64,000 nt of DNA from Phycisphaeraceae bacterium (GTDB lineage: Bacteria; Planctomycetota; Phycisphaerae; Phycisphaerales; UBA1924): positions 116,841-180,840 of the forward strand of contig JACKHC010000002.1 in NCBI GenBank assembly GCA_020639235.1. The letters run 5' to 3'. The notes beneath the pieces are model-generated. The model was not told where the DNA came from and searched no databases. It was given only the letters and a program-made list of their open reading frames with translations. How positions within the stretch are numbered: the first letter of the stretch is position 1; each line of letters starts with the position of its first letter. This document shows positions 55,699 to 63,761 of this stretch, one piece after another. Position numbers and translations under genes: made by a program.

Positions 55699-56760
55699 AT
55701 GTCCAGGAAGTCGCTTGTTGGGTTCGGATTGATCGCGATGCTCTCGACCGGCGCGCTGGTGGGCGTTGCAGCGCCAGCGCACGCGGAGCGACCGCCCGCG
55801 CAGATCGGCGGCAAAATGAGCGCCCCGCCGCTAGCGATCGATGACGCCGAACTCGACTTCGGCGATGTGGCGACGCGCTCGAAGGTGACCGGCAGCATCC
55901 GGGTTCGGAATGTAGGTGACGAGCCGGTGGTTGTGACCGATACGAGCAGCGACTGCTCGTGTACGGCGCTGTTGACGGATGGGTACGCGGTGATCGAACC
56001 GGGCAAGGACCTCGTGTTTGATGTGTCGATCGAGACACGGGACATGGGCGTGATGACGCAAAAGGTCCGGCTGATCTGCGAGGGGTTCGGGCGGCCCTTC
56101 GAGACGATTGTGCGCGCGAACGTGACCGAGAAAGTCGAGGTCAATCCCGACGGCGTCAAGGCGTTGGTGCAGCCGATGGGCCTGCTCACGTTGAAGTCGA
56201 TCGATGATCGTCCGTTCCATGTACTGAGCGTGCACGGGGGCAAGCCGCAGTTCGTGGGCTTTGATCCCGAGAACGATGAGGCGAAGTCGCTCTACCGCGT
56301 CGTCTACGACTTCACGATGCTCCCGAAGGAGGAGATTCCCAGCGTCGTGGTGGTCGAGACGGATCATCCGGACGCCCCCTTTGTGGCGATCCGTTACTTC
56401 TCGAAGGGTAAGATCGAGCCGCAGGACCGCGAGTCCAGCGCCAAGGTCTGGAAGAAAGAATACGACTTTGATTATGTGCATCGGTTGGTGCCCGGAGAGT
56501 CGGCGGAGATTCAAGTGCGCGTGGCCAAGGCGGGGCGGGCATCGCGTGAGAACGAGCTGAAGGTCTCCTCGGACAACGAACTGCTGGGCGTCGAGATGGT
56601 GGGGGTGGACCTGGACAGCGATCCGAAGTGGGCGATCGCGACGGTGCGCGTTACGGCGTCTGTCGAGGCCGAGGGATTCCAGGCGGCGACACTGACATTC
56701 ACGCTCGGCGAGGACCGTCGATGCGAGTCGCAGTTATTTACCCGGGTGGTCGGAGGGTGA
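55699..56760 (+). CDS. secreted DUF1573 domain protein
   Basis: Signal peptide 'LIAMLSTGALVGVAAPAHA'; 'LDFGDVATRSKVTGSIRVRNVGDEPVVVTDTSSDCSCT'; ATG 55699 preceded by GGAGGAG. The track ORF start 55204 overlaps sdhB and was rejected. Confidence 0.65.
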   Translation: MSRKSLVGFGLIAMLSTGALVGVAAPAHAERPPAQIGGKMSAPPLAIDDAELDFGDVATRSKVTGSIRVRNVGDEPVVVTDTSSDCSCTALLTDGYAVIEPGKDLVFDVSIETRDMGVMTQKVRLICEGFGRPFETIVRANVTEKVEVNPDGVKALVQPMGLLTLKSIDDRPFHVLSVHGGKPQFVGFDPENDEAKSLYRVVYDFTMLPKEEIPSVVVVETDHPDAPFVAIRYFSKGKIEPQDRESSAKVWKKEYDFDYVHRLVPGESAEIQVRVAKAGRASRENELKVSSDNELLGVEMVGVDLDSDPKWAIATVRVTASVEAEGFQAATLTFTLGEDRRCESQLFTRVVGG

Positions 56761-56966
56761 GGGCACGACTTGCGGGAATCTGACGGGGGGCGCGAAAGTC
56801 CGTCGGCGGGGGTGACGATCACAGTGGTGGAGTGAGTTGCAAGCCGGACGGCCGAGATGCCGCCCGGTCCTCGGTTACTTGCCAATTTCAGGCCCGGTCA
56901 ATCCGCGGTGTTCGCGGGGCGCGATCGGTGCGCTCGAACATGATCAGAACTCAGGAGTCAAAGACG

Positions 56967-57470
56967 ATGTTCACGAACTTCAACAACCAGTTTGGTTATA
57001 CGCCCTCGTTCAACGGTTTCTGCACCCCCTTCAATCAGTTCGGCGGCTTCAACTACGGCTTCACGCCGTTCTCGACGCCCTCGTTCGCGCCCGCCTCGAA
57101 CTGGCAGGGCGGCTACTGGAACACGACCCCGACGTTCCAGACCCCCTCCTACGGCTTCAATCCGTGGAACTGCTGGACGCCCGGCTTCGCGCCGAGCAAT
57201 CAGTTCTCCGGCTTCGGGTACTCGCCCGAGTTCGCCTACAGCAACGCGTGGTCGACCCCGTCCTACAACTTCGCGCCCGTGACGGGCTTCGCCACCCCGT
57301 GGCAGAGCTACGCTCCGCAGTCGCAGTACGGCTTCAATGGCTCGTACACCCCCTCCACCAATCCGTGGAACTACTCGACGACGGGTAACGCGTGGAACGG
57401 CGTGACCAATGGTCAGTGCTCGCCCAGCGGCTATCCGACCCAGTCGGGCCCCTGCCGCTCGGCGGCGTGA
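56967..57470 (+). CDS. uncharged aromatic/Asn/Gly/Pro/Ser/Thr low-complexity protein (FG/GF-type), no known family
   Basis: ATG 56967 preceded by AGGAG (56953-56957); third codon positions are almost all C/G in this frame; a strong terminator follows. Confidence 0.6.
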   Translation: MFTNFNNQFGYTPSFNGFCTPFNQFGGFNYGFTPFSTPSFAPASNWQGGYWNTTPTFQTPSYGFNPWNCWTPGFAPSNQFSGFGYSPEFAYSNAWSTPSYNFAPVTGFATPWQSYAPQSQYGFNGSYTPSTNPWNYSTTGNAWNGVTNGQCSPSGYPTQSGPCRSAA

Positions 57471-57522
57471 TGCGGCTCCGATCGCGTCCACGACCCGCGA
57501 TCGGTCAACTCAGTGAGACTCA

Positions 57523-57560
57523 CCGGGTGTGCCGCCCCGCGGCGCGCCCGGTTGTTTTTT
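57523..57560 (+). terminator. intrinsic terminator
   Basis: 13-bp stem CCGGGUGUGCCGC/GCGGCGCGCCCGG (two G-U pairs), CCC loop, immediately followed by TTGTTTTTT. Confidence 0.7.
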
Positions 57561-57645
57561 GGCTTCGGGTGGGCCGCCCTCACGCGGGGTGCTACATTTT
57601 CCCGATCACAAGGCGTGGGGATCGAGTCTGAGGCGAAGGAGTTGC

Positions 57646-60600
57646 ATGGTGAAGGGCAGTTCATTCTCAGGGACAGGTCGGCGTCCGCGCCCGGAGCCGG
57701 TGGTTTTCGAAGCGCTGGAGCCGCGGATTCTGCTGAGTGCGAACCCGGTGAATGTGATCGATGTCTTTGCGGACAACCGCGGGTTCATCACGCTTCAGAT
57801 GGACCAGAACATCAGCAACAGCACGGTGACCAACTCATCGGTGCAGATGTTCACGGCGGGCAACGACGGGCTGCTGGGGACCGCCGACGACCAGCTGGTC
57901 GTCCGGACGGTTCGGTACAGCGCCTCGGATCGGACCATCCGGATCGAGTCCAACCTTGACGCGGACACCCCCTACCGCGTCCGCCTGATCAGTTCGATCA
58001 TCCGCGGCGAGAACGGATGCCTGCTCGACGGCGAGTTCAACGGCGTCGGCGTGCCCTCGGGCGATGGCATTGAGGGCGGAGATTTCGAGATCTTCACGCG
58101 CCGCGCCGTGGTCCCGATCGCGCGATTCACGACGCTGACCGGTATCGTGGACGTGGAGTTGTTCGACAACCAGACGCCGCTGACCGTCGCCAACTTCCTG
58201 GCGTACGCGAACGCGGGCGACTGGGACAACACGTTCTTCCACCGCCTCGTCGAGGACTTCGTGCTCCAGGGCGGCGGTTTCCAGGCGACCTCCTCGTTCC
58301 CGAGCATCCCGCAGATGGCGGCGGTGCAGAACGAGCCGGGCATTTCCAACCTGTTCGGCACGATCGCCATGGCGAAGCTGGGCGGGAACCCGAACTCGGC
58401 GACGAACCAGTGGTTCTTCAACCTACGGGACAACTCGGAGAACCTTGACAATCAGAACGGCGGATTCACGGTGTTCGGCGAGGTGACGGGCTCGGAGAGT
58501 TTCGCCACACTGGCGCGGCTCGCGAACTTCATGACCGTCGATGCGTCGGGGCAGAACGGCGCCTTCACGGATCTACCGGTGCAGGACACCGACCGTGTGG
58601 ATGAGAACGGCGGGACAGTGGTGCCGAGCGATGTGCTCTCGGTATCCCGCATCGCGATTCTGATGGATATCACGGGCGAGCCGTTCCAGCAGCTGGACGA
58701 GGATAACTCGATCACATTCGTGAACAACGCGGGCGATGTGACGGTCCGCGTGTTCGCGCTCGATGGCTTCCCCGCCGATGCGCTGGAGCCCTTTATTCGT
58801 GTGAACTTCGGCTCGGGCCGTTCGATCGACGCGGTGACAATCCTCAATGGGATGCCCGACCGTCGCTTCGGCGTGCAGATCGATGGCGCCACAGTGCTGC
58901 AGAAGTTCGCGGATCAGCGTCGAACCGATGACGGCGATCTGGCGTTCATCGTGAGCGACTCCCGAATCGAGTCGATCAACCTCCGGTACGGCATCTCCGG
59001 CGAGAATCTCAACGGATTCGTGCTCCCCGGCGGGCTGCGCTTCGACGCCGACATCGACGGCGACAACATCGTTTCGGACCTGACGGCGGTCTTCGTGCCC
59101 GCCGGCAACTCGAACCTGTTCTCCGTGGGCGGTGACCTGTCCGGTGATGCGCTGTTCCTGGGCGGGCTGAACCGCGTGAATGTGCGCGGCGAGGTGAACA
59201 ACTCGGACATCCGAATCGGTGCCGGCAACCTCAACCGCCTGCTCGCGACATTCCGCAATGTGATCGATGCGCGCCTGGTGAGCGATGCGCCCATCAGCAT
59301 GGTCCGCGCGTCGGAGTGGAGTGTGCTGGAGACGCTGCGCGGCTCGATCTCGGCGCCGTCACTCCAGCGCCTCATCATCACGGGCGACAACGGGCAAGGG
59401 CTCGCGGGCAACTTCAACGCTGATATCGACCTGAGCGGCGACGACAATGTGCGCACGCTGGCGAACGCGAACATCCGGGGCAGCGTCCTGAGTTCCGATT
59501 GGGATATCACGGGAGACCTCGGGAATGTGAGCGTCCGGGGCGGTTCGTCCGGGTGGGAACTCATCGTCACGGGTGACGCTTCGACGTTCCGGCTGGATCG
59601 CCTGAAGGACACGACGATCAACGTGTCGGGTGTCGCCAGGACGCTCCGCGCGATCGATTGGACCGGGGGCGAGTTCAGAGCGCGGGAGATGAGATCGATC
59701 CTGATCACCGGTCGCAACTCGGACAACCTCGCGGGTAATCTCTCGGCGGACATCGTCGTCGGAGCGCCGGGTGTTGATAACGCGCTTCGCCTGCTGCGTG
59801 TCAACGGCGATGCGACGGACCTCTCGATCGACTTCGACGGCAATGTGCGCTCGGTGCTGGTGCGCGGCGACCTGAGGGACGCGACGCTCACCTCGATCAA
59901 CGACATCCAGACCCTGAGTTTCGGCGAAATCCGCAACTCCGATGTGAACATGCAGGGTGTCTCGAGGTCGCTGCGGTTCATCGACTGGATCGGCGGCACA
60001 CTGCTCGGCTTCCGGTATGACTCGATCGTCGCCACCGGGAACCAGGCGACCGCATCGCCGGGCAACTTCTTCGCGGATGTGGACGCTTCCAGCGCGGGCT
60101 CGATGACGCTGGACCGGGGCGGGAGTTTCGTGGGGTCGTTCGAGATGAACTTCATCGACGACTTCCGAGTGACCGGTGAAGTGCGAGACTCGTTCTTCGT
60201 GTTCACCGCGACGCCCGCGGGCCGGCCCGTGACGATCGGGCGGTTCGAGGTCACGGAGCAGATTCTCAACACCGACATCCGTTCGGCGGGGAACGTGCAG
60301 TCGTTGATCACGCCGGTGATGATCAACTCCGGCCTGTACGCGGGCATGCCCGAAGGCACGCTCGGCCTGCCGGACTCGAACCCGAACGTGAACCCGAACA
60401 TCACGATCGAGTCGGTCGTGATCGGCGTGTTGGGATCGAACCAGTTCAACTTCGTGAACAGCTACATCGTCGCGCCGCGCATTGACAGCGCGCTGGTCTT
60501 CTATCCCGATACCGCAAACCTCGGTCAGCCGCACGGGATCGCGGCGAACACGATCGGGTTCGTCGATACGCGGATTCTGGGCGGCGGGCGTCAGCGGGCA

Positions 60601-60672
60601 ACGAACCCGGGCGCCTCGCTCGATCCGATCGGTGATTACCAGGTGCGCGTCGGGTTCCTGCCCCCCGCATAA
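57646..60672 (+). CDS. giant secreted protein: 'ALEPRILLSA' N-terminal motif + cyclophilin-type PPIase domain + repeat (beta-helix-like) region
   Basis: ATG 57646 preceded by AAGGAG. Cyclophilin motifs 'VELFDNQTPLTVANFLAY', 'FHRLVEDFVLQGGGF', 'GTIAMAKLGGNPNSATNQWFFNL', 'FTVFGEV'. About three ~110-aa modules beginning '[IL]ITG..', 'SILITG..', 'SIVATG..'. Confidence 0.8.
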   Translation: MVKGSSFSGTGRRPRPEPVVFEALEPRILLSANPVNVIDVFADNRGFITLQMDQNISNSTVTNSSVQMFTAGNDGLLGTADDQLVVRTVRYSASDRTIRIESNLDADTPYRVRLISSIIRGENGCLLDGEFNGVGVPSGDGIEGGDFEIFTRRAVVPIARFTTLTGIVDVELFDNQTPLTVANFLAYANAGDWDNTFFHRLVEDFVLQGGGFQATSSFPSIPQMAAVQNEPGISNLFGTIAMAKLGGNPNSATNQWFFNLRDNSENLDNQNGGFTVFGEVTGSESFATLARLANFMTVDASGQNGAFTDLPVQDTDRVDENGGTVVPSDVLSVSRIAILMDITGEPFQQLDEDNSITFVNNAGDVTVRVFALDGFPADALEPFIRVNFGSGRSIDAVTILNGMPDRRFGVQIDGATVLQKFADQRRTDDGDLAFIVSDSRIESINLRYGISGENLNGFVLPGGLRFDADIDGDNIVSDLTAVFVPAGNSNLFSVGGDLSGDALFLGGLNRVNVRGEVNNSDIRIGAGNLNRLLATFRNVIDARLVSDAPISMVRASEWSVLETLRGSISAPSLQRLIITGDNGQGLAGNFNADIDLSGDDNVRTLANANIRGSVLSSDWDITGDLGNVSVRGGSSGWELIVTGDASTFRLDRLKDTTINVSGVARTLRAIDWTGGEFRAREMRSILITGRNSDNLAGNLSADIVVGAPGVDNALRLLRVNGDATDLSIDFDGNVRSVLVRGDLRDATLTSINDIQTLSFGEIRNSDVNMQGVSRSLRFIDWIGGTLLGFRYDSIVATGNQATASPGNFFADVDASSAGSMTLDRGGSFVGSFEMNFIDDFRVTGEVRDSFFVFTATPAGRPVTIGRFEVTEQILNTDIRSAGNVQSLITPVMINSGLYAGMPEGTLGLPDSNPNVNPNITIESVVIGVLGSNQFNFVNSYIVAPRIDSALVFYPDTANLGQPHGIAANTIGFVDTRILGGGRQRATNPGASLDPIGDYQVRVGFLPPA

Positions 60673-60678
60673 GCGGAC

Positions 60679-62139
60679 TCATTCGGCCGCGAGTCCGGAC
60701 TTCTCTCGAATCCAATCGCGGATCATCTCGATCACGCGCGGGTGGATGGTCTGCTCGATCTGCGCGTACTCGTCGATCGTGCCCTTGGTGCACTCCTGGA
60801 ACATGTGATTGAGGCCGGGCAACTCGCGGATCGTGACGTCCGCGTTGCCCGCGGCTTCGAGCGCAGCGCGAATCTCCGGAAGGTTCTGCGAGGGCACGAC
60901 CTGAACATCCTTGGAGCCGTTGATGGCCAGCACCGGACAGGTCACCCGGCGGAGGGCGACGCGGGGATCGTGATCGACGAATGAGACGAACCACGGGCTC
61001 GTCACCATCGCGGTCTGCGCCTGCGTCATCTCGTCCAGCGCTTCTTCTTCGAGATTGGGCATCTGGCGCTTGAGCGCACCGCGGACATGCTCGGTGAGCT
61101 CGTCGCGGCGTTCGGCGTCGTGGATGAGTTCGAGCGTCTTCTTCTGGTCGGCGAGCTGGCGGGCGATCTCGGCGGGCTGTACGCCCGACGCTTCGAGGAT
61201 CGCGCGAACTTGCACCTTTAGAACATCGCCGCCCGGCACGCCGGTGCCGGCCATGAGCACGATGAAGGCGACATCGGGGGATCGCGATGCGACGAGGGGC
61301 GCGATGATGCCGCCCTCGGAGTGACCGATCAGGCCGATGTGATCGATGTCGATCGAGGGCATCTCCTTGAGCAGCGCGATCGCGCCCAGCACATCACCCG
61401 CGAACGTGTCCGCCGTCGCGCGGGAGATGTCTCCCTCGGAACCGCCCACGCCGCGGTCGTCATAGCGCAGCGAGGCGATGCCGTGGCGCGCAAGGTCGTC
61501 GGCCAGCACGAGGAAGGGCTTGTGATCGAAGATGGTCTCGTCGCGGTCCTGTGCGCCCGAGCCGGTGATGAAGACGACCGCGGGGTGCGGGCCGTCTCCC
61601 TCCGGGATGCAGATCGTGCCCACGAGTCCGGCGTCGTCGGCCCGGCTCCGGAACTCCACCTCGGAAGTTTCGTAGGGGAATGGCGGCTTGGGCGTCTGGG
61701 GTCGGTTGACGGTTGTATCCACTTCCTCGCCCGCGAGGAGTTTCGAGAGTTTGGCTGGGAACTCCATGCCGTTCTGTTTCAGCAGTCCCTCGGCGGCGGT
61801 GGCGTCCGCATTGATTGAAAGATCCCAGACAGCGCCGACGAGTTTCCATTCAAGGACGAACTTGCCCGCGTCGAGCGACACGGAGTCGAGCGCGGTATCC
61901 GAGACCATCTGCGCGGGTATGGAGATCGTGGCCGCGAGGTCGCCCGTGTCCCGGCGCGTGACCTTGAAGATCATGCGCAGTTGCTGGCCGAAGACATCGA
62001 CGTGCCCGTCCCACGTGCCGACCACATCGGCGGCCGTTGCGACAGCGGCATCTTCGGGCGCTTCAGCGCGGAGCAACGCAGCGGGCGCGATAAGGATCGC
62101 TGAGAGGGACAAGAGTGCGGCGGTGAGGGTCGGGCGCAT
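60679..62139 (-). CDS. secreted alpha/beta hydrolase (serine hydrolase)
   Basis: Signal peptide 'MRPTLTAALLSLSAILIAPAALLRA'; nucleophile elbow 'GLIGHSEGG'. The track ORF was trimmed to ATG 62139. Confidence 0.8.
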   Translation of the reverse strand: MRPTLTAALLSLSAILIAPAALLRAEAPEDAAVATAADVVGTWDGHVDVFGQQLRMIFKVTRRDTGDLAATISIPAQMVSDTALDSVSLDAGKFVLEWKLVGAVWDLSINADATAAEGLLKQNGMEFPAKLSKLLAGEEVDTTVNRPQTPKPPFPYETSEVEFRSRADDAGLVGTICIPEGDGPHPAVVFITGSGAQDRDETIFDHKPFLVLADDLARHGIASLRYDDRGVGGSEGDISRATADTFAGDVLGAIALLKEMPSIDIDHIGLIGHSEGGIIAPLVASRSPDVAFIVLMAGTGVPGGDVLKVQVRAILEASGVQPAEIARQLADQKKTLELIHDAERRDELTEHVRGALKRQMPNLEEEALDEMTQAQTAMVTSPWFVSFVDHDPRVALRRVTCPVLAINGSKDVQVVPSQNLPEIRAALEAAGNADVTIRELPGLNHMFQECTKGTIDEYAQIEQTIHPRVIEMIRDWIREKSGLAAE

Positions 62140-62273
62140 GGGGAGCTCCGGGGAAGATAGGTGGTTCCGGTAAGGGTATTCCGATTCCGGCCGGGCGCGT
62201 TGCATGGGCTGCCGGCGGGCCATCGGGGCGGATTCCGCTGGCGGCGTGGGCAGGGGCGGGGAATACTGCGACG

Positions 62274-63761
62274 GTGTCGGTGACGCGAGCGACCCTGTTT
62301 CTGAGTTTGGTGCTGACCCTGGCGTGCGCCGGGGCGTGGGGCGACACGTGCGCGCTGCGGGCGTTGGAGGCGGCGTCCCCCGAGGCGGCAACAGGAACAC
62401 TCGGTTCGTCTGTCGCGGGCGCGGGCGGCCTGGTGGTGACAGGTGCGCCCTATTCGAACGCGAGCGGATTTGAGTCGGGAGCCGCGTTCGTGTTCCGCGT
62501 GGTCGATCACGAACTCGTCCTGGGTGAAGCGCTGACGGCGCCCGGCGTCGGGAGCGGGGATCGCTTCGGATTCGCGGTGGCGACGGATGGCTTTTTGATC
62601 GCCGTGGGCTCTCCGGACGACTCGGGCTTGGCGTCCGGTTCCGGAAGCGTGCGCGTCTTCCGCGAGGCGGGCGGTAACTGGTCGAGTGTCGGCGTGGTGC
62701 TCGCCCCGGACGGTGGAACGGAGGATCGATTCGGCGCTTCGGTCGCAATAGATGGAAACACGCTCGTCATCGGCGCTCCGTCGCGCGGCGAGGATGATGC
62801 GGGCGCCGTTTATGTCTTTGCGTGGGATGGTGCATCATGGACGCACACGCAAACGATCGTCGCGGGCGACTCGGACTCGGGGGATCGCTTCGGAACATCG
62901 GTCTCGATCGACGGGAACCGATTGCTGATCGGCGCGTTCGCGGACGATGAGGGCGGCGAGGACGCGGGGGCCGGGTACATCTACGATCGCGTCGCGGGCG
63001 TGTGGGTGTTGGGCGCGAAGCTGATCTCGGCAAGCGGCGCGGCGGCGGACCTCATAGGTTGGTCATCGGCGCTCTCGGGAGACATCGCGGTGCTCGGGGC
63101 GCCCGGGCGCGACGCCGGCGGCTCACAGGCGGGCGGCGCGGTCGTGTTCGACTATCAGGGCGGCGTGTGGGTTGAACAGGGCACGCTGGTGGGCTCCGGC
63201 ACTAGCGCGTTCGACAGGCGCGGATCGAGCGTTGCGGTCGAAGACGGCCTCGTGATTCTCGGTGCACCACGGGATGACGCCGACGGCGCGAACTCGGGGA
63301 GCGCCTCGGTCTTTGCCCGCTCGAGCGGTGTGTGGCACGAAGTCGCGTTTGTGCGGCCCTCACCGGGCAACGCCGGCGCGGAGCTCGGTGCCGGTGTGGC
63401 GCTCGCCGATGGGCTAGGCGTGTTCGGTGCGCCCAAGGCGGCGGGCGGCGATGGGCGTCTGTTCGTGCTTCCTGCGATCGACGATTGCGATGCCTCGGGC
63501 GCGCTCGATGCCTGCGAAGTGGCCTCCGGTGCGCTCGCGGACGAGAACGGCGACCTCGTGCCCGATGCATGTGCACCGCCGCCGTGCCCCGGCGACGCGA
63601 CCGGCAACGGCGTCGTGGATGTGCGGGACTTGAATCTGGTGCTGGCGTTCTGGGGTCAACAGCCCTACGAGCCATTCCAGAGCGCGGACATCACCGGCGA
63701 TGGGTTCGTCGATGTGGATGACCTCAATGTCGTGCTCACGAGTTGGGGATGTCGGCGCTAA
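62274..63761 (+). CDS. FG-GAP-like beta-propeller repeat protein with C-terminal dockerin-like module
   Basis: Signal peptide; repeated 'DRFG.SV(A/S)(I/T)DG..L(V/L)IGAP..D...GA.Y(V/I)F' units; C-terminus 'GNGVVDVRDLNLVLAFWG...GDGFVDVDDLNVVLTSWGCRR'. Confidence 0.7.
   Translation: MSVTRATLFLSLVLTLACAGAWGDTCALRALEAASPEAATGTLGSSVAGAGGLVVTGAPYSNASGFESGAAFVFRVVDHELVLGEALTAPGVGSGDRFGFAVATDGFLIAVGSPDDSGLASGSGSVRVFREAGGNWSSVGVVLAPDGGTEDRFGASVAIDGNTLVIGAPSRGEDDAGAVYVFAWDGASWTHTQTIVAGDSDSGDRFGTSVSIDGNRLLIGAFADDEGGEDAGAGYIYDRVAGVWVLGAKLISASGAAADLIGWSSALSGDIAVLGAPGRDAGGSQAGGAVVFDYQGGVWVEQGTLVGSGTSAFDRRGSSVAVEDGLVILGAPRDDADGANSGSASVFARSSGVWHEVAFVRPSPGNAGAELGAGVALADGLGVFGAPKAAGGDGRLFVLPAIDDCDASGALDACEVASGALADENGDLVPDACAPPPCPGDATGNGVVDVRDLNLVLAFWGQQPYEPFQSADITGDGFVDVDDLNVVLTSWGCRR

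Follow-up and report, generated by a model that had tools for sequence, protein, structure and literature searches.

The open reading frame (ORF) at 56967–57470 on the plus strand of the window, i.e., of the whole 64-kb stretch of Phycisphaerales (Planctomycetota) DNA analyzed here, is a real and unusual gene. It encodes a charge-free, aromatic-dense, predicted-disordered protein of 167 amino acids (aa) that belongs to an orphan family and is under selection for composition and patterning. Judged from sequence, the role best inferred for this protein would be a cohesive, phase-forming one.

The 167-aa protein, its family and what selection preserves

Retranslation of the gene gave F20, P20, S20, T19, N19, G19, Y12, A11, Q10, W8, C4, V2, M1, E1 and R1, with K, D, H, I and L all at zero. 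F, W and Y account for 24.0% of the protein and charged residues for 2 of its 167 positions (fraction 0.012); the dipeptide FG occurs three times, GF eight times and GLFG not at all. An earlier interpretation made from the DNA letters (hereafter the sequence-only reading) had given these residue counts, the 24% aromatics and the numbers of FG and GF, and all of them matched exactly. It had also listed recurring motifs, which are present but few, i.e., TPS[FY] four times, GF[NA]P twice and NPWN twice. Proline makes up 12% of the chain, and its 20 X-Pro bonds are mostly T-P (ten) and A-P; threonine contributes 11%. Moreover, W-N-x and aromatic-x-N motifs recur, and a Gly-Gly pair stands at residues 26–27.

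At codon positions 1, 2 and 3 the G+C fractions of the gene are 0.38, 0.61 and 0.91, compared with about 0.6, 0.45 and 0.86 in neighboring genes (third-position values, GC3, of 0.81–0.87), in line with the C/G-rich third positions noted in the sequence-only reading. F, N and Y together reach 31% in the protein versus about 12% in four neighboring genes, in a window of 65% G+C; since all three use A/T-rich codons, the composition runs counter to the GC bias of the genome. A chance scan covered all stop-free segments of at least 70 aa in six frames of 663 kb, i.e., the window plus 94 fetched loci (designated L001 and so forth), with a filter of at most 3 charged, at least 12 aromatic and at most 8 aliphatic residues per 80 aa. 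Among 3,947 segments only 12 passed, all of them ORFs of the orphan family. The composition of the 167-aa protein is far beyond chance.

With Lys absent and the lone Arg at position 164, trypsin digestion would give a 164-residue peptide plus 'SAA'. The protein is thus invisible to standard trypsin shotgun proteomics, and missing tryptic peptides would therefore not count against its expression.

In a word-indexed search, 5.8 billion cluster representatives yielded two relatives, with 98% and 62% identity. Two further relatives, along with one spurious repeat protein, came from a full HMMER profile search of 1.84 billion representatives, and a second profile search brought the total to six clusters. 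In all, the profile searches place only seven clusters among about 15 billion predicted proteins in the orphan family. Our family alignment comprises seven members including the window protein, 167–212 aa in length; some cluster members have 176 or 217 aa, perhaps through other start calls. All family members with a taxon label are Phycisphaerales, like the host of the gene; the contig of one is labeled 'uncultured Phycisphaerales bacterium', and the NCBI name for a family protein is 'hypothetical protein [Phycisphaerales bacterium]'. This is a very small, lineage-restricted orphan family of 167–217 aa.

The sequence-only reading had recognized no bacterial family, and the database scans agreed. 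Pfam gave sub-threshold matches only for the seven members, i.e., PMG (PF05287; 16.3 bits, E = 0.011, cut-off 29; two of seven members) and Cytadhesin_P30 (10.7 bits, cut-off 40). NCBIfam found no family in the 167-aa protein, LEPR-XLL (NF012209) included, a PDB profile search gave no hit at E ≤ 10, and scans of the protein and the seven members with PHROGs and PADLOC gave no family. With regard to gene origin, the intergenic regions here share no similarity with the DUF1573–cyclophilin spacers of L011 or L010, and the spacers upstream and downstream of the gene share none with each other.

The sequence at 56967–57470 is a genuine protein-coding gene with its own terminator. At six loci with 37–62% protein identity to the window protein, ORF, ATG and stop codon are all intact and all length differences are in frame; frame-breaking indels were looked for in these orthologues and none lay within the ORF. 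The ratio of nonsynonymous to synonymous substitution rates (dN/dS), calculated according to Nei and Gojobori (NG86), was 0.30–0.70 in 15 of 15 pairs for the sense frame and 1.12 for the codon-aligned antisense frame, with dS among the intact orthologous ORFs of up to 0.5–1.2. GC3 across the family ORFs is 0.89–0.94, similar to adjacent genes, and the codon choice of the 167-aa ORF is native, i.e., as in other genes of the window, with rare codons avoided. Between the window and L001, dS is 0.68 in the gene, below the 1.05 and 2.66 of the flanking genes. This hints that its synonymous sites are constrained by codon bias or mRNA structure, and with such a lowered dS the dN/dS may overstate relaxation of the protein.

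A conserved overlapping frame was sought as well. The other two plus-strand frames were rejected, as stops interrupt them in most homologues (L090 keeps one of them open). An antisense ORF of 177 aa (56958–57491, minus strand), codon-aligned with the gene, is stop-free at six of six homologous loci because the sense frame has no TTA, CTA or TCA codons, and could mislead gene callers. We rejected it as a gene for its dN/dS given above and its GC3 of 0.38; it is a by-product of missing Leu and TCA codons. An extension to a GTG at 56832 was likewise rejected, since homologues carry frame-shifting indels 5′ of the ATG, which is invariant, and in L001 a stop lies 8 codons upstream.

Between the window and L007 the 167-aa protein shows 41% identity, compared with 58% for the DUF1573 protein encoded upstream, 74% for the cyclophilin protein encoded downstream and 82% for SdhB. 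Aromatics make up 20–24% of every family member, charged residues number no more than 4 and I plus L likewise no more than 4, with family-wide ranges of 9–13 for Y and 6–9 for W. Among positions differing from the window protein, 28 of 341 substitutions (8%) led to D, E, K, R, H, I, L, V or M, compared with 47.5% of one-step nonsynonymous codon neighbors (binomial P ~2e-56, to be read with the proviso that lineages are not independent; the effect is large).

Aromatic residues are also evenly placed. Their gap variance was 4.5–7.7 versus 12–19 in shuffled sequences, in six of six members; the share of shuffles that did not exceed the observed variance was 0.0000–0.037 in these six members, and the mean gap between aromatics is 3.95–4.8 positions across the family. 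For proline, omega was lower than in shuffles in six of six members and gap variance in four of six, and Gly and Asn spacing showed no clear evenness versus shuffles in the six diverged members. These patterns indicate that selection keeps composition, even aromatic and proline spacing and five short motifs rather than sequence. The gene and the motifs, whose conservation was taken from the seven-member alignment A4, are as follows.

56967–57470, plus strand: coding sequence (CDS), 167 aa plus stop codon, aromatic-rich and near-charge-free (from composition, homologues, dN/dS, codon usage and AlphaFold2)
56967–56993, plus strand: N-terminal motif M-F-T-N-F-x-N-x-F, aa 1–9; M1, N7 and F9 invariant, F/Y conserved at 2 and 5
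57225–57245, plus strand: motif P-E-F-A-Y-S-N (in the family P-[ED]-F-x-Y-x-N), aa 87–93; P87, F89 and N93 invariant
57300–57311, plus strand: motif W-Q-[SG]-Y, aa 112–115; Q113 and Y115 invariant
57360–57374, plus strand: motif N-P-W-N-Y, aa 132–136; all five residues invariant in 7 of 7 members
57447–57467, plus strand: C-terminal motif G-x-C-R-x-A-A-COOH, aa 161–167; G161, C163, R164, A166 and A167 invariant in 7 members

Position 88 is E in six members and D in one, and is the sole acidic residue of the window protein. The C-terminus reads C-R-[STND]-A-A in seven of seven members; it contains the only Arg of the window protein, one invariant Cys and an ssrA-like Ala-Ala end. The Gly-Gly at 26–27 is not conserved in the seven-member alignment. 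In the 212-aa member from L006, a 27-nt unit encoding TPGFAPQFA is repeated 3.6 times with 85% match (1336–1432 of that locus) and terminates in PEFAYSN. A sticker-spacer unit of 9 residues thus seems to have been expanded in tandem recently, and the family can grow through unit duplication. The window gene itself has no tandem repeat at the DNA level.

The 167-aa protein is predicted to be fully disordered, as had been proposed in the sequence-only reading. AlphaFold2, run with the seven-member alignment, gave a mean predicted local distance difference test (pLDDT) score of 32; every residue stayed at or below 50, and secondary structure was absent from the model. Hydropathy over 19-aa Kyte-Doolittle windows peaked at 0.20 (family maximum 0.63) and no K or R precedes residue 164; the protein hence has no signal peptide and no transmembrane (TM) segment, which the sequence-only reading had also stated. 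Sec, Tat and lipoprotein signals are likewise missing, as is the LEPR motif, and in view of this lack of an export signal it is placed in the cytoplasm by default.

Signals and neighboring genes at the locus

The gene is framed by the following elements.

55699–56760, plus strand: DUF1573/HYDIN-type protein with signal peptide and three tandem immunoglobulin (Ig)-like domains (Pfam DUF1573, 9e-13; context only)
56761–56966, plus strand: upstream intergenic region of 206 nt, 5′ untranslated region (UTR) and/or promoter (conserved length and blocks)
56903–56917, plus strand: hairpin CCGCGGTGTTCGCGG (alignment columns 159–175, retained in 5 of 5 loci)
56953–56957, plus strand: Shine-Dalgarno sequence AGGAG with a 9-nt spacer to the ATG (direct reading of the sequence)
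57480–57502, plus strand: hairpin GATCGCG-TCCACGACC-CGCGATC, 10 nt past the stop codon (alignment and minimum-free-energy fold)
57522–57561, plus strand: intrinsic terminator with a 14-pair G+C-rich stem, a 3-nt loop and a T-run (pattern scan and fold)
57646–60672, plus strand: 1008-aa LEPR-XLL cyclophilin protein with N-terminal LEPR-XLL, Ig-like domain, peptidyl-prolyl isomerase domain and a long repeat region (context only)

The Shine-Dalgarno sequence had been called 9 nt upstream in the sequence-only reading and is conserved, i.e., CAGGAG is kept in four of five loci and AGGAG is displaced by 2–3 nt in L006, with the ATG invariant. The own terminator, described there as a 13-bp stem at 57523–57560, is confirmed with slightly different boundaries. 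Its stem spans 57522–57552 and is followed by TGTTTTTTGG, and the fold has −36.2 kcal/mol (z = −2.6). It is retained in five loci with compensatory changes at column pairs 69/97, 72/94, 73/93, 78/89 and 81/86 and a T-run in all. With this conserved terminator the 167-aa gene ends its own transcript. The hairpin at 57480–57502 is paired in five loci (alignment A7, columns 18–45), with changes on both sides at 18/45, 19/44, 20/43, 21/42 and 27/36, and appears in the minimum-free-energy fold, too.

The upstream spacer is 206–211 nt long in five loci. Besides the CCGCGGTGTTCGCGG hairpin it holds the invariant blocks CGAAAGTC, CGATCA, GAGTG and GTGCGC, and RNAalifold proposed a multi-stem fold for it, with an unfavorable covariation term (+4.08). 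The spacer may be a regulatory 5′ UTR. A pattern scan of it found no terminator and no sigma-70-like promoter, and Rfam gave zero matches on 56600–57750 at E ≤ 1. As a terminator is absent between the DUF1573 gene and the 167-aa gene, co-transcription is possible; the transcript of the latter may have its own start or be shared with the upstream gene. A further non-coding block at about 57565–57640 (GGGTGGGCC...GGTGCTACATTTTCCCGATCA...GGCGTGGGGA), 5′ of the cyclophilin gene, is mostly invariant in five loci and more conserved than the adjoining CDS, with coding sequences of these loci at 64–84% protein identity. It has no match in Rfam and may be the promoter or leader of the cyclophilin gene itself.

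For the DUF1573 protein, AlphaFold2 gave an all-beta model of about three segments with a pLDDT of 76, and the best Foldseek matches were HYDIN-type Ig domains (ciliary central-apparatus proteins) and other multi-Ig proteins. On this model it reads as three Ig-like domains. A role as dedicated chaperone was rejected, since model and matches show a generic three-Ig array only. Its own family is small as well, with 10 clusters at E ≤ 1e-5. The downstream neighbor, which the sequence-only reading had called giant, has only 1008 aa. It matches Pfam Pro_isomerase (4e-28) and NCBIfam LEPR-XLL (29.6 bits, cut-off 17), and key catalytic residues of the cyclophilin domain, which lies at about residues 160–300, are present by eye. 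The protein begins with MVKGSSFSGTGRRPRPEPVVFEALEPRILLSA (57646–57760), i.e., with the LEPR-XLL motif and no hydrophobic signal peptide. Its L011 orthologue (37% identity) aligns from residue 38 on, and 1845–1950 of that locus encode a classical-looking signal peptide, MTMFGIRLAHNCVLMTAVSATLASVSLA; this comparison suggests that LEPR-XLL may be an alternative N-terminal export signal. Further downstream, an alpha/beta hydrolase (60679–62748, minus strand) matches S33, S15 (X-Pro dipeptidyl-peptidase) and S9 (prolyl oligopeptidase) and lies in the same place in L006 and L007, and a protein with five FG-GAP_2 repeats and a dockerin-like C-terminus is encoded at 62274–63761 (plus strand). The proline-related annotations near the locus may be coincidental.

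In every locus with context the order is SdhB, DUF1573, the 167-aa gene, the roughly 1000-aa cyclophilin protein and the alpha/beta hydrolase on the opposite strand, and the cyclophilin gene adjoins the family gene in L001, L002, L006 and L007. This order says little, because the loci stem from closely related genomes that keep the unrelated SdhB in synteny as well. L011 has SdhB, DUF1573 and the cyclophilin gene, with about 170 bp and no family gene between the last two. The sequence-only reading had suggested a look for similar genes beside LEPR-motif giant genes in related genomes; in 80 metagenome loci recovered with the cyclophilin alignment, some of them full-length orthologues with 34–38% identity, there was no ORF of similar composition. 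None was present either at three loci with distant DUF1573 homologues, where the next gene is IspD or others. As DUF1573 and cyclophilin genes are thus found without the family gene, it was added in one sub-clade or lost elsewhere. The partnership with the cyclophilin protein proposed in the sequence-only reading is therefore left with narrow-clade synteny that SdhB shares equally and is not supported; moreover, export signals are present in both neighbors and absent from the 167-aa protein. A functional link of the latter to either neighbor would be hypothetical.

Explanations weighed

We tentatively read the 167-aa protein as a cytoplasmic, self-associating sticker-and-spacer polymer with specific terminal handles, which appears quite possible to us though short of probable. 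The aromatics, about one per four positions, would act as multivalent stickers. With these and zero net charge, water would be a poor solvent, and the chains would self-associate as a dense condensate or gel. Proline at 12% and the even sticker spacing would keep the chain disordered and not amyloid. The conserved termini would be specific recognition handles, with C-R-x-A-A-COOH most plausibly an ssrA-like tail for ClpXP or a C-terminal (PDZ-type) protease, or else a docking ligand; readout of this tail would give control over level or location of a very aggregation-prone protein, for which the cytoplasm would be the default location. A wider claim, which we put forward as rather doubtful, is that an 'aromatic phase' protein, minimal, charge-free and stand-alone, arose independently in a bacterium and in vivo forms a cohesive condensate or gel resembling in its physics the eukaryotic FG, YG and prion-like phases, with sticker density, even spacing and the two terminal handles as the selected properties.

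Several observations weigh against the cytoplasmic polymer. The dN/dS of the 167-aa gene is 3–7 times that of its neighbors (0.08–0.10), and because of this high ratio and the confinement of the family to one narrow clade the gene may be young and loosely constrained. The mean pLDDT of 32 came from an alignment of only seven sequences and is hence weaker evidence for disorder than usual. Both flanking proteins look exported and no terminator lies between the DUF1573 gene and the 167-aa gene, which would fit an extracytoplasmic role. The degron reading of the C-terminus is drawn only by analogy with the recognition of Ala-Ala tails in ssrA, RseA and Tsp; the 64-kb window contains no tRNA, transfer-messenger RNA (tmRNA) or Clp gene.

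An alternative is an exported matrix, adhesive or envelope protein working with its neighbors. It would leave the cytoplasm by non-classical export via MFTNF and form a cohesive, aromatic-rich layer or glue outside the cell, with the DUF1573 protein as handle or anchor and the cyclophilin isomerizing the 20 X-Pro bonds. The constant order of DUF1573, gene and cyclophilin in every member with context, possible co-transcription with the DUF1573 gene, the export signals of the neighbors (a signal peptide in DUF1573 and a signal-peptide-like N-terminus in the L011 cyclophilin) and the 12% proline, mostly in T-P and A-P, all agree with this. A precedent in Planctomycetota exists as well, namely Brosi_A1236, in which an extracellular disordered region phase-separates and glues cells (PMC7482068). 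We nonetheless consider it unlikely, since Sec, Tat and lipoprotein signals, an LEPR motif and a TM segment are all absent from the protein, the synteny is uninformative with SdhB syntenic in the same loci, and a strong conserved terminator separates the gene from the cyclophilin gene. Moreover, L011 keeps DUF1573 and cyclophilin about 170 bp apart without the gene, the 80 further cyclophilin loci lack a compositional analogue, distant DUF1573 homologues adjoin IspD, and the DUF1573 model is a generic three-Ig array and no recognizable chaperone. A different proposal dispenses with a dedicated role and sees a young, lineage-specific gene, possibly arisen de novo between DUF1573 and cyclophilin, of marginal or no function and with a composition that is tolerated, not used. 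Only seven clusters among about 15 billion proteins, the gene missing at the orthologous position in L011, faster evolution (41% identity versus 58–82%, dN/dS of 0.3–0.7 versus about 0.1) and the 27-nt unit expanded 3.6-fold in L006 speak for it. However, 8% versus 47.5% substitutions to the forbidden class, even stickers and invariant terminal motifs are hard to explain without function, the ORF is intact at dS of 0.5–1.2, and Shine-Dalgarno sequence, 5′ region and terminator are conserved; we hence judge it improbable.

Very improbable in our view is a true bacterial counterpart of FG-nucleoporin domains, in which the protein would line a pore of the planctomycete envelope or of internal membranes with a selectively permeable phase. 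The protein is charge-depleted, rich in F, G, N, Q, S, T and P and predicted to be disordered, but it departs from Nup98 in length, in FG density and GLFG motifs and in Y/W/C depletion, lacks both an anchoring domain and a TM segment, shows no homology to nucleoporins or any PDB chain, and comes from Phycisphaerales, not Gemmata. Hardly any credence is due to readings in which the product is not functional as a protein in its own right, whether as the precursor of a bacteriocin or of modified aromatic peptides or as a long leader ORF whose aromatic-codon translation controls read-through of the downstream hairpins into the cyclophilin gene. The W-N-x and aromatic-x-N motifs, the Gly-Gly at 26–27 and the stop codon 10 nt 5′ of a conserved hairpin that is followed by the terminator would suit these ideas. 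Against them stand the lack of a radical-SAM enzyme, protease, ABC exporter or immunity gene nearby and the non-conserved Gly-Gly; selection against charge and the invariance of the C-terminal motif point to a protein as the product, and a highly conserved block of its own precedes the cyclophilin gene. We know of no leader peptide near 167–212 codons, all being far shorter. Readings as ribosomally synthesized and post-translationally modified peptide, microcin, attenuation leader or pilin-like protein (N-terminal 'FT') were judged unsupported.

The combination of near absence of charge with an aromatic at each fourth position is very rare, with seven clusters in about 15 billion proteins. To our knowledge, fully disordered stand-alone proteins are uncommon in bacteria, and if the 'aromatic phase' reading is true, no protein of this kind would have been described from bacteria before. 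Composition and sticker patterning kept over sequence is the signature described for eukaryotic phase-separating low-complexity domains. Should the protein form a condensate or gel, this protein grammar would extend to Planctomycetota, the 167 residues would provide a natural minimal model for sticker-and-spacer behavior, and the finding would point to a new cell-biological structure in an uncultured lineage. Should it not, the gene would still be a clean case of a taxonomically restricted gene under compositional selection.

Comparison with known systems

PMG (PF05287) stands for keratin-associated, Gly/Tyr-rich structural proteins. Their likeness to the 167-aa protein is a weak compositional match of 16.3 bits, far under the 29-bit gathering cut-off, composition-driven and found in two of seven members. 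With substrates of ssrA-like degron pathways and tail-specific proteases the family shares a free ...A-A-COOH C-terminus in seven of seven members. Ala-Ala tails are recognized by tail-specific PDZ proteases (Tsp) and by ClpXP, the latter for instance in ssrA tags and in an RseA fragment with VAA at its end. From the same phylum, the anammox protein Brosi_A1236 has a disordered T/S/G-rich C-terminal region that binds itself, phase-separates and gels (PMC7482068). Like the 167-aa protein it offers a disordered low-complexity region; in contrast, this region is part of a protein of more than 1,500 aa described as an S-layer surface protein, the paper makes no mention of aromatics, and there is no homology.

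Nup98-type FG domains comprise 500–700 aa, are charge-depleted (also in H, V and I) and have Y, W and C selected against; charge-depleted FG domains phase-separate, and shorter spacers lead to greater cohesion and density (PMC9918544). Of the four features taken from that work, the 167-aa protein shows one and departs in three. It is alike in being predicted to be disordered (pLDDT 32) and of low complexity, with 2 charged residues, no H, no I and 2 V, in its spacers of N, Q, S, T, G, P and A and in hydrophobic aromatic stickers that would be expected to drive phase separation. It is unlike them in its length (167–217 aa in the family versus 500–700) and in having no other or anchoring domain. 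Its FG dipeptides number three, GLFG cannot occur without Leu, and the eight GF are not FG motifs. Moreover, there is one aromatic per 4 positions here versus one FG motif per about 12, i.e., an about threefold higher density, and Y (12), W (8) and C (4) are abundant in the protein. Finally, the host is bacterial and there is no sequence homology to nucleoporins. The cohesive, FG-type composition proposed in the sequence-only reading thus held for the charge-free aromatic grammar, which is under selection (28 of 341 substitutions), and failed as a strict FG type, given three FG, no GLFG, abundant Y, W and C and 167 aa. The 167-aa protein would work like an FG domain in principle and is not a member of that group.

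Prion-like domains of the hnRNPA1 and FUS type are of a size comparable to the 167-aa protein, and their aromatic fraction is usually below the 20–24% of the family. They likewise hold aromatic stickers in a polar G/S/N/Q context with spacing more even than chance, and their composition is more conserved than their sequence. Evenly distributed aromatic stickers are thought to favor liquid-like condensates over aggregation (PMC8638251). Unlike these domains, the 167-aa protein contains 12% proline, 11% threonine and Trp and almost no Arg or Asp, and it is a whole stand-alone bacterial protein, not a domain joined to RNA-binding modules. In its grammar it is nevertheless closer to prion-like low-complexity domains than to FG domains.

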